IMG/VR virus record: IMGVR_UViG_3300016464_000279
Coordinates: 1 to 30,333 of that record
Direction: 5' to 3' (one strand)
Length of the DNA: 30,333 nucleotides
Source of the DNA: a virus
Lineage: Duplodnaviria; Caudoviricetes
Position 1 is the first letter of the stretch. Every line of letters begins with the position of its first letter. Shown in pieces: positions 814 through 17,229 of this stretch. The notes under the pieces were generated by a model. That model was not told the DNA's origin. It did no database searches and saw nothing but the letters and a program-made list of their open reading frames with translations. A program made the translations under genes and the position numbers.

Positions 814-924
814 ATGGAAATCCTGCTAAACATCTTCTGTTTCTGGGTCATCTGGGTCTGTGTCATGGATGCAGACAAGAACGCCGCTAGACGGCGACAA
901 GAGCGAGAAGACGAGGTGCAGTAG
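814..924 (+). CDS. Small single-pass membrane protein, 36 aa
   Basis: Read manually: MEILLNIFCFWVIWVCVMDADKNAARRRQEREDEVQ; starts 2 nt after previous stop. Confidence 0.55.
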   Translation: MEILLNIFCFWVIWVCVMDADKNAARRRQEREDEVQ

Positions 925-1303
925 CTGTGCTTCCGGTAGGCTTGAGGGCTGTTTCAGAGCATAGCAATCCCTTTGCAGGAAACTGCCATGCTCCAAGCTC
1001 CACTTCCGTATAGGAATCGGGAGTCCCGTCGCAAGTCTCACTGCCTTCCCGGTCGGCTGGCTCAGTAAAGCCGGGTCAAATGGCAGGGAGCGCAACCCAT
1101 CTTTGCAGATGCGCCTTTTGCACGACTGATTCGCTGGTCCATCGTGCGCCGAATCCTCCGCCAGCCCGCGTTGCCCGCTCAGGGACGCTACTGACTTCTG
1201 CTGGGCGAGGAATACCCAAACAAAGAGGCCGGCGCTGTGATGGAAACGCCGGCCTCTGAGCAGTTTGCTGAGGGCAGATTACGCCCATCACGACGCAAAC
1301 CTT
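925..1303 (-). ncRNA. Candidate structured non-coding RNA (unknown family)
   Basis: Largest gene-free gap; many stems; two loops read GCAA (GNRA) on the minus strand (973-976, 1103-1106); a + strand A.C mismatch becomes G.U on minus (957-966/984-993); minus-strand promoter upstream. Confidence 0.55.
1224..1257 (-). terminator. 11-bp GC-rich hairpin, terminator/attenuator-like on the minus strand
   Basis: AGAGGCCGGCG (1224-1234) / CGCCGGCCTCT (1247-1257), followed on the minus strand by TTGTTTG. Confidence 0.55.
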
Positions 1304-1309
1304 ATTGTT

Positions 1310-1338
1310 GCCTTACCATGCTCCCTCTTGCTCGTCAA
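1310..1338 (-). promoter_or_regulatory. Putative sigma70-type promoter firing leftwards
   Basis: Minus strand TTGACG (1338-1333), 17 nt, TAAGGC (1315-1310) preceded by TGn; -10 is imperfect. Confidence 0.5.
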
Positions 1339-1364: not shown

Positions 1365-1541
1365 ATGAAAGCGAATGACCTGAACCGCCTGACCGCCGAG
1401 GAACTGGAATGCCTGTCCACGTTCCTGGACGACAACTTCCCGCTGTTCGTTGACCACCTGAGCGACTTCGGCAAGGCTGACGACTTCGCTGAAGCCTTGA
1501 TTGACAAACTTTCCGCTTCTTGTTTCCAGCGTGAAGACTGA
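1365..1541 (+). CDS. Small acidic helical hypothetical protein (58 aa)
   Basis: ATG at 1365 in ORF 1305..1541: MKANDLNRLTAEELECLSTFLDDNFPLF... Confidence 0.65.
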   Translation: MKANDLNRLTAEELECLSTFLDDNFPLFVDHLSDFGKADDFAEALIDKLSASCFQRED

Positions 1542-1839
1542 CCCCCGCCTCGCCAGGGTCGGTGTGACCGGCTACAACAAGCCGAAGCGCACGCCGAGCC
1601 ATCCCACCAAAAGCCATGTCGTCGTTGCCAAGCAGGGCGATAAGGTGAAGACCATCCGTTTCGGGCAGCAAGGTGTTTCCGGCTCTCCCTACAAGAAGGG
1701 CGAAAGCGAGGCGGACAAGAATCGCCGTGAGTCCTTCAAAGCTCGCCATTCCGAGAATATCAAGAAAGGCAAAATGTCGGCTGCCTATTGGGCCGATAAG
1801 ACTAAATGGGCTGTTGCGCTTTTGTTTTACTTGGCTTAA
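1531..1839 (+). CDS. Small basic phage protein (DUF5754-like)
   Basis: GTG start at 1531; motifs KSHVV..K.GDKVKTIRFGQQG, RRESFKARH and SAAYWA typical of this widespread viral family. Confidence 0.75.
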   Translation: MKTDPRLARVGVTGYNKPKRTPSHPTKSHVVVAKQGDKVKTIRFGQQGVSGSPYKKGESEADKNRRESFKARHSENIKKGKMSAAYWADKTKWAVALLFYLA

Positions 1840-1860
1840 GGATTGAGGTCTTAAACCTCC

Positions 1861-3510
1861 ATGTTCCAGCTTGAAGTAACCAAGGAGAACCTTGGGCAGT
1901 ATCGCCCGACTCCGCACCCTATCCTAGTTGCTCCTTCACCGGAGACGATTGCCGCACTCGTCAAAAAGGTTGGCATGGATGAGGTCGTCCGCCGCCTGCA
2001 ACTGCGCGAAGACAAGATTCTAGCCGAGCGGATGGACCCTTATCGGCACGGCTATGAGCCTGACCACTGGAAGACCGCCGACAACCTGCTTTCTGACCCC
2101 GAGGTCAATGAACTGGTCATCCTAGGGGGCAACCGAGCGGGCAAGTCTGAATACGCTGCAAAGCGTGTCGCCCAGGTGTTGAGCCGGAATCCCGATAAAC
2201 GGGTCTGGTGTGTCCACACTACGAACATGAGCAGCGTTCAGATGCAGCAACCGCTTGTTTACAAGTATCTGCCTGCCGAGTTCAAGACCGCCAAGAAGAC
2301 CAAAATCACCAACGTCAGCTTCACGCAGAAGAACGGCTTTAGCGAAAACACCTTCGTTCTGCCCAACCGCAGCCAGTGCTGGTTCCTCAACCAATCGCAG
2401 GACATCAAGGTCATCGAAGGTGGTGAGATCGACTTCCTCTGGATCGACGAAGAAGTGAACAACGACTGGCTAAAGACGCTCCGATACCGTCTGGCAAGCC
2501 GACGAGGTAAGATGGTGCTGACCTTCACGCCGATTTCAGGCTATACGAGCGTGGTCAAGGAATACATGGCAGGGGCGTCCATCACCGATTGGAAGCCTGC
2601 GAGCCTACTTGCCGACCATATCAACGTCCCTGGCGGCGACAAAGGCGCCATGCCGCACGTTGCCAGGTGCCACAAGCCCAACGGCAGGGTGATGTGGTTC
2701 CATTCGGAGCTTAATCAATACTCGCCATTCACCGAAATCCAGCGAGCACTGCACGGAAGAACGGGCTACGAGGTCAAAATTCGTGCTTACGGCTATGCTG
2801 AAAGCCTTGCCGGGTCACAATTCCCGCGTTTCGGTGACTGGAACGTGATTCCACACGACAAAATCCCCGAAAACGGCACGAATTACATGGCGGTTGACCC
2901 TGCCGGAGCAAGAAACTGGTTCATGCTGTGGCTCAGGGTGGACGAATACGGCAGAAGGTTCATTTACCGCGAATGGCCTGACATTTCCTACGGTGAATGG
3001 GCGATTCCCAGCGATAAATCGGACGGAAAAGCAGGCACAGCGCAGCGAAACGGCGCAGGCCGAGGCATTGCCGACTACAAAGCCCTGATTCGGGAGCTAG
3101 AAGGCCGCGAAACCATCGCAGAAAGGTTTATTGACCCCCGAGCCGGTGGCACTCAGGCTATCGGAAGGGACGGCGGCACCTCTCTCATTGACCTTTTGCA
3201 GGAAGACCCCGACCCGATGTGGTTCACGCCTGCTGCCGGTCTGCGGGTTGAGGAAGGAATCAGCATTATCAACGACTGGCTGGCCTGGGACAAGGACCAA
3301 CCCTTGCTTGCCCTCCATAATGAGCCTAAACTTTACATCAGTGAGAACTGCCGCAACCTCATTTACTCTCTGCGCGAATGGACAGGCGCAGACGGCGACA
3401 AGGGCGCAACCAAAGACCCGGTTGACGTTCTCCGCTACCTTGCCGTGATGAACCCGGCAGACGAAACGATCACCAGTTACCAACCTCAAGGCCAAATCGG
3501 GAGCTACTAA
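1861..3510 (+). CDS. terL: Terminase large subunit
   Basis: Walker A GGNRAGKS, Walker B LWIDEE, motif III LTFTP, RNase H-like MAVDP and C-terminal KDPVDVLRY. Confidence 0.95.
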   Translation: MFQLEVTKENLGQYRPTPHPILVAPSPETIAALVKKVGMDEVVRRLQLREDKILAERMDPYRHGYEPDHWKTADNLLSDPEVNELVILGGNRAGKSEYAAKRVAQVLSRNPDKRVWCVHTTNMSSVQMQQPLVYKYLPAEFKTAKKTKITNVSFTQKNGFSENTFVLPNRSQCWFLNQSQDIKVIEGGEIDFLWIDEEVNNDWLKTLRYRLASRRGKMVLTFTPISGYTSVVKEYMAGASITDWKPASLLADHINVPGGDKGAMPHVARCHKPNGRVMWFHSELNQYSPFTEIQRALHGRTGYEVKIRAYGYAESLAGSQFPRFGDWNVIPHDKIPENGTNYMAVDPAGARNWFMLWLRVDEYGRRFIYREWPDISYGEWAIPSDKSDGKAGTAQRNGAGRGIADYKALIRELEGRETIAERFIDPRAGGTQAIGRDGGTSLIDLLQEDPDPMWFTPAAGLRVEEGISIINDWLAWDKDQPLLALHNEPKLYISENCRNLIYSLREWTGADGDKGATKDPVDVLRYLAVMNPADETITSYQPQGQIGSY

Positions 3511-15621: not shown

Positions 15622-16426
15622 CGCTCCAAAAGTCCCTTCCTACGGCGCACAAATGCAGTCCGCTCTGCGGGCACAAGAACGCATTGCACCGCGTCTTCTG
15701 TCTCTTGAGCGACAATATCAACCGCAGTTCACTGCCCTGAACCTGCAACAGCTTGGTGGCGCTCTTTTCGGCGCCGAGGGGCAACCTGGCTATCTTGGCA
15801 TCCTGCAACAGCTTGCGCCTGAATATCGCCAGCTTGAAGCCCAGGATACTGCCGCCCTGCGCGCCGAGGAAACCCGCCAACTTGGACAGTTTGCACCGCA
15901 ATACGTCCAGACCTATCGCCAAGCCGCAGGCACTCAGGGCTTGCTTTCTGGCTTGCAGCAGCAGGCCGAGCAGGAACTTGCTGCCGGTGCTTCCCTGACT
16001 CCCGAGGAACAGCGCCAATCGCAGCAGGCAACCCGAGCCGCTTTCGCTGGTCGTGGTCTTGGCCTGACCAACCGGGCGATTGGTTCCGAAATCCTGAACC
16101 AGTATGGGCTTGGGCAGGAACGGTTGCAGCAGCGTCGCCAGTTTGCTGGACAGACTGCCGCGCAACTTGAGTCTTCTGGAATGCCGCAGTATTACAACAC
16201 CATGATGGGCGGCGGAAGCCTGCAAAATCTGATGGGTCTTGCCGGTGGCGCTCAGGGATTGACCTCTGGACGCTTCTTCAACCCAGAAAGTCAGATGGCA
16301 ATGGATATTTCCGGCCAGCGTAGCCAAAGCCAAGCGGCTTCTAGCGCAGCAGGTGCCGCCAACCGTAGTGCCATGATTGGTGCCGGTGCTGGCGCGGTTG
16401 GTTTGGTTGGTGCCGCCCTTATCTGA
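15602..16426 (+). CDS. Internal virion (ejection) protein
   Basis: Q/A/G-rich; MGSSTPDAP N-terminus; Gly/Ala hydrophobic C-terminus. Confidence 0.7.
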   Translation: MGSSTPDAPKVPSYGAQMQSALRAQERIAPRLLSLERQYQPQFTALNLQQLGGALFGAEGQPGYLGILQQLAPEYRQLEAQDTAALRAEETRQLGQFAPQYVQTYRQAAGTQGLLSGLQQQAEQELAAGASLTPEEQRQSQQATRAAFAGRGLGLTNRAIGSEILNQYGLGQERLQQRRQFAGQTAAQLESSGMPQYYNTMMGGGSLQNLMGLAGGAQGLTSGRFFNPESQMAMDISGQRSQSQAASSAAGAANRSAMIGAGAGAVGLVGAALI

Positions 16427-17229
16427 TGACCAAGCTCGAAAAGACCCGACAGCTAATCGCTGACGGCTTCAAGCACTTTCCGAACGGACTAGTTTGCTGG
16501 TCTGGCGGAAAAGACAGCATGGCGTTGCTGCACATCATGCGTAGCATGGGCATCAACCTGCCTGTCATCTTCTTCCGCGAACCTTGGCAACCTTGGAAGT
16601 ACGAGTTCCATGACCGCATCATTCGTGAATGGAAGCTACTCGTCCACACATGGCATCCGCAGGAGTCCGCTTTTCAGCAGACCGACAACGAGTTTGAGGT
16701 GCAGAACGTCTACCAGGTGAACGGCACCAAGTTAACCTGTCCGACAGGCATTGTTGAACCTGCTGCAAACGCTCCTTGGGTCTGCGCTCTGGACATTCTC
16801 AACCGGCCAAAGCAAGCGTTGCTGGAAATGCCGCAATTCCAAGCACTCTGGATCGGTCACAAAGGTTGCGACTCTGACCCGATCCTTGGAGGTGATGCCG
16901 GGACTCGCATCGAGGCTAGGATCGTTCCTGGTCAAGGCACCATGCTGTTCCCCCTGCGAGACTGGACTCATTCCGAGATATGGGACTATCTTGAGGGCAA
17001 CAACGTCCCCTATGACGAGGGACGTTACGAGAAGGTCGAAACCGGCTGGCAGGAACGCAAAGACAAGCTGCACAACGTGGATTATGTTCATGCCTGCACT
17101 AGGTGCCTTGATAGACGAGAAACTGCGTCTAAATTTGTACCATGCCCAAAGCTAGGCATGACCGTTGAAAACATCGCTCACCTTGTGCCTTGGGCAGCGC
17201 AGGAGAGGCTAACATACATGAAAGACTAA
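16426..17229 (+). CDS. PAPS reductase-fold PP-loop protein
   Basis: WSGGKDS PP-loop; FPLRDWTHSEIWDYL...VPY; CTRC; lacks the C-terminal ECG(L/I)H motif of CysH. Confidence 0.85.
   Translation: MTKLEKTRQLIADGFKHFPNGLVCWSGGKDSMALLHIMRSMGINLPVIFFREPWQPWKYEFHDRIIREWKLLVHTWHPQESAFQQTDNEFEVQNVYQVNGTKLTCPTGIVEPAANAPWVCALDILNRPKQALLEMPQFQALWIGHKGCDSDPILGGDAGTRIEARIVPGQGTMLFPLRDWTHSEIWDYLEGNNVPYDEGRYEKVETGWQERKDKLHNVDYVHACTRCLDRRETASKFVPCPKLGMTVENIAHLVPWAAQERLTYMKD

Follow-up and report, generated by a model that had tools for sequence, protein, structure and literature searches.

We identified an accessory structured-RNA cassette on the minus strand of the window, i.e. the whole 30,333-nt stretch of viral DNA that was analysed. 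The cassette is real and uncatalogued, fixed in strand, dispensable and mobile, and consists of three separable modules (leader A, hairpin L and RNA B), where the original prediction had seen one RNA of ~380 nt. It probably represents an optional RNA gene that is directed at the host and carries its own read-through switch, and not the replication origin of the virus. Its assignment as a minus-strand, structured, non-coding element of no catalogued family, driven by a predicted promoter, is supported by covariation, by the asymmetry of G-U over A-C cells and by negative Rfam scans. Leader A and RNA B are very probably functional RNA structures.

The window is a linear virus record with an estimated completeness of 79% and encodes a terminase large subunit, portal, major head protein, endolysin, ssDNA-annealing protein, exonuclease VIII, SSB and a RusA-like protein. 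The gap that holds the cassette is bounded by small genes ending at position 924 and by an ORF at 1365, a short distance before the terminase gene. The right flank (1501..3510, plus strand; context only) contains a small basic protein (phrog_7595) and the terminase large subunit. The phrog_7595 gene (1501-1839, plus strand) has no Pfam match, is weakly similar to a minor head/DNA pilot family and lies directly before terL in most close relatives, while an extra ORF is inserted between the two in L014. A PAPS reductase-like gene (16426-17229, plus strand) within the virion gene block is conserved in G012 and G015. Similarity searches with the gap gave no useful match among phage records or plasmids. 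No part of the window matched Rfam 15 at the gathering threshold (best E-value in 800-1500, 0.35), the original prediction having likewise assigned the RNA to no family, and the matches below threshold were chance-level terminator matches only. A literature search returned no published description of the cassette; alignments of an IMG/VR candidate-RNA survey (PMC10690425) may hold fragments of A, B or the alternative module C, and the available tables of that survey contained none of six motifs and none of six sample numbers. Among four sequencing runs of uncertain type, one 151-nt contig matches 1025-1175 exactly; three other pieces of the window occur in the same run at similar depth, and the contig is therefore uninformative on expression.

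Homologues were collected by two routes. A TerL search yielded 78 loci, which matched the gap either over its whole length or at ~1200-1360 only. Scanning viral contigs with a conserved-core pattern gave 59 matches, of which 42 were B copies and 17 were dropped (16 without a profile match, one with the motif only); 25 of the 31 matches in metagenome contigs were B copies and six were dropped. None of four matches in GTDB genomes was a B copy, the pattern being an exact one by which divergent copies could be missed. The totals are 46 distinct full-length copies of B and at least 24 of C. Most B copies were found via the pattern, which biases the set toward intact copies; the TerL-derived loci, found without it, carry the full module or none.

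RNA B (928..1156, minus strand; 46 distinct full-length homologues) is a ~225-nt pseudoknotted fold, whose structure was derived from an alignment of 41 of the 46 sequences (mean identity 71%, ~21 effective sequences). Mutual information recovered five helices. We named 40 pairs in eight helices for testing: 98.4% of 1640 cells were paired and 24 of the 40 pairs showed two-sided changes, figures that lean high because structure and counts come from the same alignment. Slid registers were 28-38% paired, and no shuffle reached the observed pairing. The 5' core (1039..1156) contains helices P1 (1152-1148/1057-1053, one pair with two-sided change), P2 (1147-1141/1126-1120, five pairs), P3 (1115-1113/1061-1059, one pair), P4 with its GNRA loop (1111-1107/1102-1098, five pairs), P5 (1088-1082/1045-1039, six pairs) and P6 (1075-1071/1052-1048, four pairs). 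By this alignment support is good for P2, P4, P5 and P6; P1 and P3 each depend on a single varying pair, and the change in P3 is a single event on the tree. As P5 and P6 cross P1 and P3, the core is pseudoknotted, and it retains many invariant unpaired bases. The 3' part (928..1038) has two hairpins, one small (1016-1004) and one long (993-957), and closes the cassette with a conserved tail of ~30 nt; helices 7 and 8 are paired in 95% and 91% of cells with one two-sided change each, hence weaker support. Model R1 matches 928-1156 with 208.9 bits, by construction. An additional pairing seen by eye between the P2 loop and the strand after P4 was not above control (4.71 versus 4.52).

The comparison gives strong support to the structure proposed for this region and refines the stems on which the proposal was based. 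All nine stems listed in the original prediction are present, with 8 of 9 positions paired in 1037-1045/1082-1090 and 10 of 12 in 1154-1165/1200-1211. Stem 1054-1058/1069-1073 is not the conserved pairing; instead, 1053-1057 pairs with 1148-1152 and 1071-1075 with 1048-1052. The mismatch cue for the minus strand holds: 957-966/984-993 pairs at 9 of 10 positions on the plus strand and, with its A.C mismatch turned into G.U, at 10 of 10 on the minus strand. A GAAA or GCAA loop caps P4 in 27 of 41 sequences. Together with 114 G-U versus 3 A-C cells in the RNA B alignment, these loops fix the strand and favour RNA over a DNA cruciform. Folding energy, which had been suggested as a check, is modest by itself (925-1338, z -1.91 on the minus and -0.51 on the plus strand), and over ten homologous cassettes z averages -3.9 for the RNA strand and -2.0 for its complement. 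A conserved coding signal had been named as contrary evidence. The minus-strand ORF 1291-1076 is interrupted by in-frame stops in 13 of 17 homologues and changes length by other than a multiple of 3 in three more, and 15 of 17 have stops in the 1095-923 part of the minus-strand ORF 826-1095; judged from these sequences, neither open frame is conserved among homologues.

Leader A (1217..1305, minus strand) was compared among 56 distinct leaders and coincides with a match of the terminator scan. It contains a 5' stem P1 (1301-1295/1268-1262), an inner hairpin (1286-1272) and a terminator-like hairpin (1257-1224) followed by a U-run (1223-1217), i.e. the GC-rich stem and U-rich run of an intrinsic terminator; at least five U within 8 nt were present in 40 of 43 leader tails. 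Its 5' bulge (1291-1285) is complementary to the terminator loop (1243-1237). Across the 56 leaders the Watson-Crick run between bulge and loop averaged 7.55 for cognate versus 3.97 for non-cognate combinations, reached at least 7 in 51 and covered at least 70% of the terminator loop in all 56; the loop is 5-8 nt long in 54. The variable pairing segment occurs as 34 distinct strings (some differing in length alone), and the bulge/loop pairing thus covaries across the set of compared sequences. Leader A precedes 44 of 45 RNA B copies and, among the matches listed, 15 of 20 module C copies with room upstream. Five of six copies without leader A were examined, and four of them carry a different leader with an 8-9 nt pairing between a 5' segment and the terminator loop. 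This second leader family, different in sequence and of the same kind of complementarity, was seen upstream of B or C in L083, L194, L230 and L266; L247 has a 17-nt complement in place of leader A, likewise upstream of B or C. A candidate terminator further downstream (882..899, minus strand), inside the small plus-strand ORF 814-924, is at chance level, with three hairpins found by the scan versus 1.5 in shuffles.

A minus-strand promoter had been proposed from TTGACG-17-TAAGGC at 1338-1310. The motif is present, with a -35 box at 1338-1333 and a weak -10 box at 1315-1310 (minus strand); a consensus scan called no promoter there because the -10 box is poor. The sigma70-like promoter is thus predicted from the sequence and from a recurring -35-like TTG motif. 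Of 56 distinct upstream regions, 40 carry this motif at a distance of 37-47 nt from the leader, compared with 9, 11, 2 and 2 of 56 in non-overlapping and 15 and 22 in overlapping control windows. We infer a start site near 1305-1302.

Leader A is the best fit for the regulatory RNA that had been offered as an alternative to an origin. Bulge-loop pairing is a feature of the P4 CI RNA, and in the pfl/ZTP riboswitch the junction of a 5' helix-junction-helix pairs with the loop of a 3' hairpin. As a short promoter-proximal phage RNA whose variable single-stranded segments complement each other, leader A resembles CI and the P1 C4 RNA family (RF01695; PMC2864571); in contrast to them, it has no Rfam match and no second copy or complement of these segments in the genome. 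The variable segment, as copy or complement, was neither enriched downstream nor shared elsewhere in ten genomes (downstream matches, cognate versus non-cognate, 5.14 versus 5.11 and 4.86 versus 4.98). The lack of such targets, including the sites elsewhere on the phage that characterize C4/CI, argues against an antisense system of this type. Leader A resembles pfl/ZTP (RF01750), which overlaps a terminator (PMC2864571), in that its junction/bulge pairs with the loop of the 3' terminator hairpin, but differs in that the pairing is free to vary, with no fixed ligand pocket evident, in the lack of purine genes and in the lack of an Rfam match. A loop fully paired to the bulge could also stabilise a terminated 85-nt RNA instead of promoting read-through.

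Between leader A and RNA B lies hairpin L (1157..1216, minus strand), an exchangeable linker of ~60 nt. L-type hairpins precede RNA B in 27 of 37 distinct linkers, and the other ten have different hairpins or tRNA-like units. Variation in the stems of L is compatible with pairing as judged by eye; pairing of its 5' loop with the 3' tail was not above control (5.8 versus 5.6). The start of RNA B follows a helix at a distance of 1-4 nt, and this helix can be the extended acceptor stem of a tRNA-like unit. In some loci such units, enclosed in long closing stems, are placed between A and B; their occurrence is not tied to A and B, most B copies lack such a neighbour, and the window has no tRNA-like unit. 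Tandem tRNA-like or tRNA-sized units with two recurring 17-18 bp closing stems and very variable bodies were observed in L085, L092, L094, L104, L107, L143, L427, L435, L443, L444, L451 and L461. The L107 unit was called tRNA-Met and was the only Rfam match (tRNA) in 20 related loci. In L457 (900-1062), a natural deletion or a chimeric assembly has joined a tRNA-like unit directly to the 3' half of B, the two meeting at a short motif that they share. In G015, a tRNA-Ala and a tRNA with anticodon TTA (ochre suppressor-like) were predicted by ARAGORN ~1.5 kb from the cassette (L322:8117-8408). Irregular tRNA-like polycistrons have been described (PMC5389517), and in the part of that report available they share with some cassette relatives the tandem irregular units; none of five motifs (A, B, C and the unit stems) occurred in the one supplement searched.

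The slot behind leader A is occupied in relatives by B, by an unrelated fold C or by other sequences, amounting to at least five different payload folds. Module C is likewise an uncatalogued structured RNA, of ~220 nt (L004:3325-3556, minus strand), in the same slot as B, and was also found in L002, L009-L011, L015-L017, L055, L061, L187, L191-L198 and L222-L289. Two-sided changes were seen in 17 of its 42 predicted pairs. The G-rich 3' strand of its last hairpin is near-invariant, with partners varying between C and U only, and presumably recalls the G tract of mitochondrial CSB II. Other payloads were observed in L051, L143, L144, L156, L185 and L408 (300-400 nt after A in the five other than L143); in L051, L144, L156 and L408 the payload closes with a long hairpin and a tail like that of B, followed by an ORF that by eye resembles the HNH type, and L051 and L156 have weak partial similarity to RNA B.

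The cassette is accessory and is gained, lost or swapped as a unit among related viruses. L045 is an exact empty site, whose junction holds 425 bp (B) in L053 and 427 bp (C) in L011, and L050 has no cassette while its nearest TerL neighbour, L049, does; in both L045 and L050 the loss removes the whole cassette. No cassette match was found in G028 (97% complete, TerL 79%). On a TerL tree of 24 loci, B requires seven label changes, five of which are forced by starred branches. Phages that share 0-3 proteins with the window carry the cassette at other sites. Its orientation is counter to the majority strand in each of 13 genomes, where it occupies several different positions, and it is single-copy in the genomes scanned.

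Among known phage elements, GOLLD and ROOL are pseudoknotted phage or prophage non-coding RNAs described, in the accessible part of bioRxiv 10.1101/2024.12.08.627333, as of unknown function and often near tRNA genes, with ROOL non-essential in one strain. The cassette RNA is likewise phage-borne and pseudoknotted, but B is ~225 nt long compared with 659 and >800 nt in that source, has no Rfam match and occupies a slot of exchangeable content that a dedicated terminator leader precedes; it neither exceeds 600 nt nor matches either family model. The PeSLs of T4-type phages combine a mobile sigma70-like promoter with a terminator/attenuator hairpin and shuffle non-essential genes; according to the available portion of PMC2839356 they are short, repeated within a genome and drive ORFs. 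The cassette shares with them mobility, a predicted promoter and a terminator-like hairpin, and differs in being single-copy and counter-oriented with 200-400 nt of conserved RNA structure. By analogy, it appears GOLLD/ROOL-like in context and PeSL-like in mobility, and falls outside every family tested.

Downstream ORFs raise the question whether the cassette acts in cis or in trans. A same-strand ORF starts within ~45 nt of the end of B in 23 of 41 copies compared with 17% by chance, an excess that favours a cis role. The main rival, unlikely though not to be dismissed, takes the whole cassette as a long 5' leader controlling a passenger gene: A would attenuate transcription, B would be a ligand- or protein-sensing translational switch and the window copy would have lost its passenger. 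Nuclease-type passengers need tight control, and the invariant unpaired bases of the B core are aptamer-like, aptamers having many such bases. Against this, the 18 of 41 B copies without a downstream ORF, the window's included, show no decay (0.8 of 40 pairs broken versus 0.5 with an ORF, i.e. both intact). Eight pairs of B copies were chosen for the apparent lack of a credible ORF, and in five of them the two copies are distinguished by two-sided changes, although L119, L120 and L102, used in those pairs, do have an open frame by the rule of the script. A candidate switch pairing between the 5' and 3' ends of B was no better in cognate than in non-cognate combinations (5.15 versus 5.12), loss takes the cassette entire, and the passengers are unrelated to one another. 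Of 20 ORFs scanned behind B or C, 14 had no Pfam match and one more a weak, unrelated match only; HNH (L194, L225) and GIY-YIG-type MUG113 (L230) were confirmed by Pfam, and HSDR_N-like nuclease matches (L003, L355) were weak and under the Pfam cut-off. Nuclease-like ORFs of at least three families lie right behind B or C (L001:1655-1987, L003:2438-2824, L194:1297-1626, L225:920-1255, L230:609-1112), and L052 has one on the opposite strand (L052:1096-1518). These ORFs, the precise presence or absence at the junction and the precedent of SegB spreading the T4 tRNA region (given in the available text of PMC2330249) would suit a selfish passenger spread by associated endonucleases, its folds only restraining the nuclease and bringing the phage no benefit; common and intact nuclease-free copies and the diversity of payload folds in one slot make this highly improbable. 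We tentatively prefer an independent RNA, with passenger genes also making use of its promoter, to a pure cis leader.

RNA B could also be a ribozyme that cuts or matures a polycistron, freeing upstream tRNA-like units or the downstream mRNA, which we regard as improbable. Its core is compact with crossed helices and invariant bases, and P3 is AGAC/GUC with a preceding A, which we take to resemble the G-binding helix of group I introns. However, group I introns have a P3/P7 pseudoknot, a P4-P6 domain and a terminal G, whereas P1 of B encloses the P7-like 3-bp helix without crossing. HDV-like/theta folds are nested double pseudoknots with P3/L3, P1.1 and a J4/2 strand carrying the catalytic C, whereas in B the 3' strand of P1 runs straight into that of P6 and the helix order leaves no P4-J4/2 strand. 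The start of B just after a helix recalls theta ribozymes, which sit beside phage tRNAs (PMC10879173, in the part available), but tRNA-like units are lacking beside most B copies and also occur without B, and no Rfam ribozyme family matched.

That the predicted transcript is a pre-primer for an auxiliary RNA-primed origin (a ColE1-like R-loop), used in a plasmid-like or early phase, is very doubtful, and a ColE1-type origin as the replicon of the phage is not supported. The hypothesis came from the lack of visible replication genes, which reflects the incomplete record of the window: in G015 (TerL 91%) the initiator and DnaB genes fall in the stretch that the window lacks. Of 24 records searched, 21 encode DnaB, the exceptions being the window, a second partial record and an A-only record of 97% completeness; among the 14 carriers that are at least 90% complete, 13 encode it. 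Three of four adjacent initiator candidates tested contained DUF1376. Carriers thus encode their own initiator-type gene and DnaB, and the cassette is dispensable, as seen from empty sites and close relatives without it. Complete genomes G004, G012, G013, G015 and G016 combine a lambda-like initiator/DnaB pair with the lack of a tyrosine integrase. This lack, in five of five complete genomes, would fit an auxiliary origin, as would the sharp end of the conserved sequence with no shared terminator and the near-invariant 3' G residues in the end hairpin of C. A G-rich tract has a role in persistent hybrid formation of the ColE1 replicon; one is present in module C and absent from RNA B. The cassette resembles ColE1 RNA II/RNA I (PMC8683028; NC_001371) in that a promoter precedes a 5' hairpin with a U-rich run after it, in its long folded transcript (here predicted) that lacks a 3' terminator and, by eye, in a few short motifs of similar order. 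It differs in length (~380 versus 550 nt), in lacking a G6 tract in B, in dispensability, in DnaB-encoding carriers and in profile similarity (not significant). A convergent promoter for an antisense RNA I was not called, the scan giving none on either strand in 600-1900; it missed the minus-strand promoter too. The homology of B and C to ColE1 noticed by eye was rejected (pairwise z 0.92 and 0.43; profile test, p 0.44 and 0.58); the best primer-region match of the B covariance model was 1.4 bits. Profile searches of B against ColE1-family origins, including those of Enterobacterales, Aeromonas, Vibrio and Pasteurella named in the accessible part of PMC8683028, gave no match in either direction. 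Leader A versus the ColE1 5' end gave a pairwise z of 2.86, but the reverse complement scored 30.0 versus 32.3, and the profile test gave p 0.16. GC skew, proposed as a further check, has no consistent switch: no extreme lies within 1.5 kb of any of five B cassettes. Two of 12 genomes (G014, G019) have an extreme within 30 nt of the G-rich end of C, which we attribute to the G run acting locally; G015, almost a twin of G014, does not.

The explanation we prefer, while holding it at less than even confidence, is that the cassette is an RNA operon of the host polymerase in which the leader sets read-through and the payload acts in trans. Transcription by host RNA polymerase would begin from the promoter at 1338-1310 and meet an attenuator in leader A, whose 7-nt bulge would pair with the emerging terminator loop and set the level of read-through. 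The read-through product would fold into a stable, pseudoknotted RNA B whose likely role is a trans action on the host; the most plausible target would be a protein of host defence or translation, for which B would serve as binder or decoy. A bolder version, which we think rather unlikely, is an RNA-only accessory operon with one universal kissing-loop attenuator and interchangeable RNA payloads serving as protein-free counter-defence or host-takeover effectors. These unrelated folds, which would replace one another as protein morons do, would comprise B, C, three or more others and tRNA mimics held by clamp stems, and B would be a new ligand-binding or catalytic RNA class.

Large pseudoknotted RNAs of bacteria and phages with conserved cores are rare and have in the past been a source of ribozymes, riboswitches and RNA assemblies. 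This locus yields two well-sampled candidates, B (46 distinct) and C (at least 24 distinct), and a compact leader in which pairing between terminator loop and upstream bulge is found in 56 of 56 cases. All modules are small enough to be probed in vitro, which requires no cultured host, and the empty, B-filled and C-filled natural alleles at one junction make the function of a phage orphan RNA directly testable.
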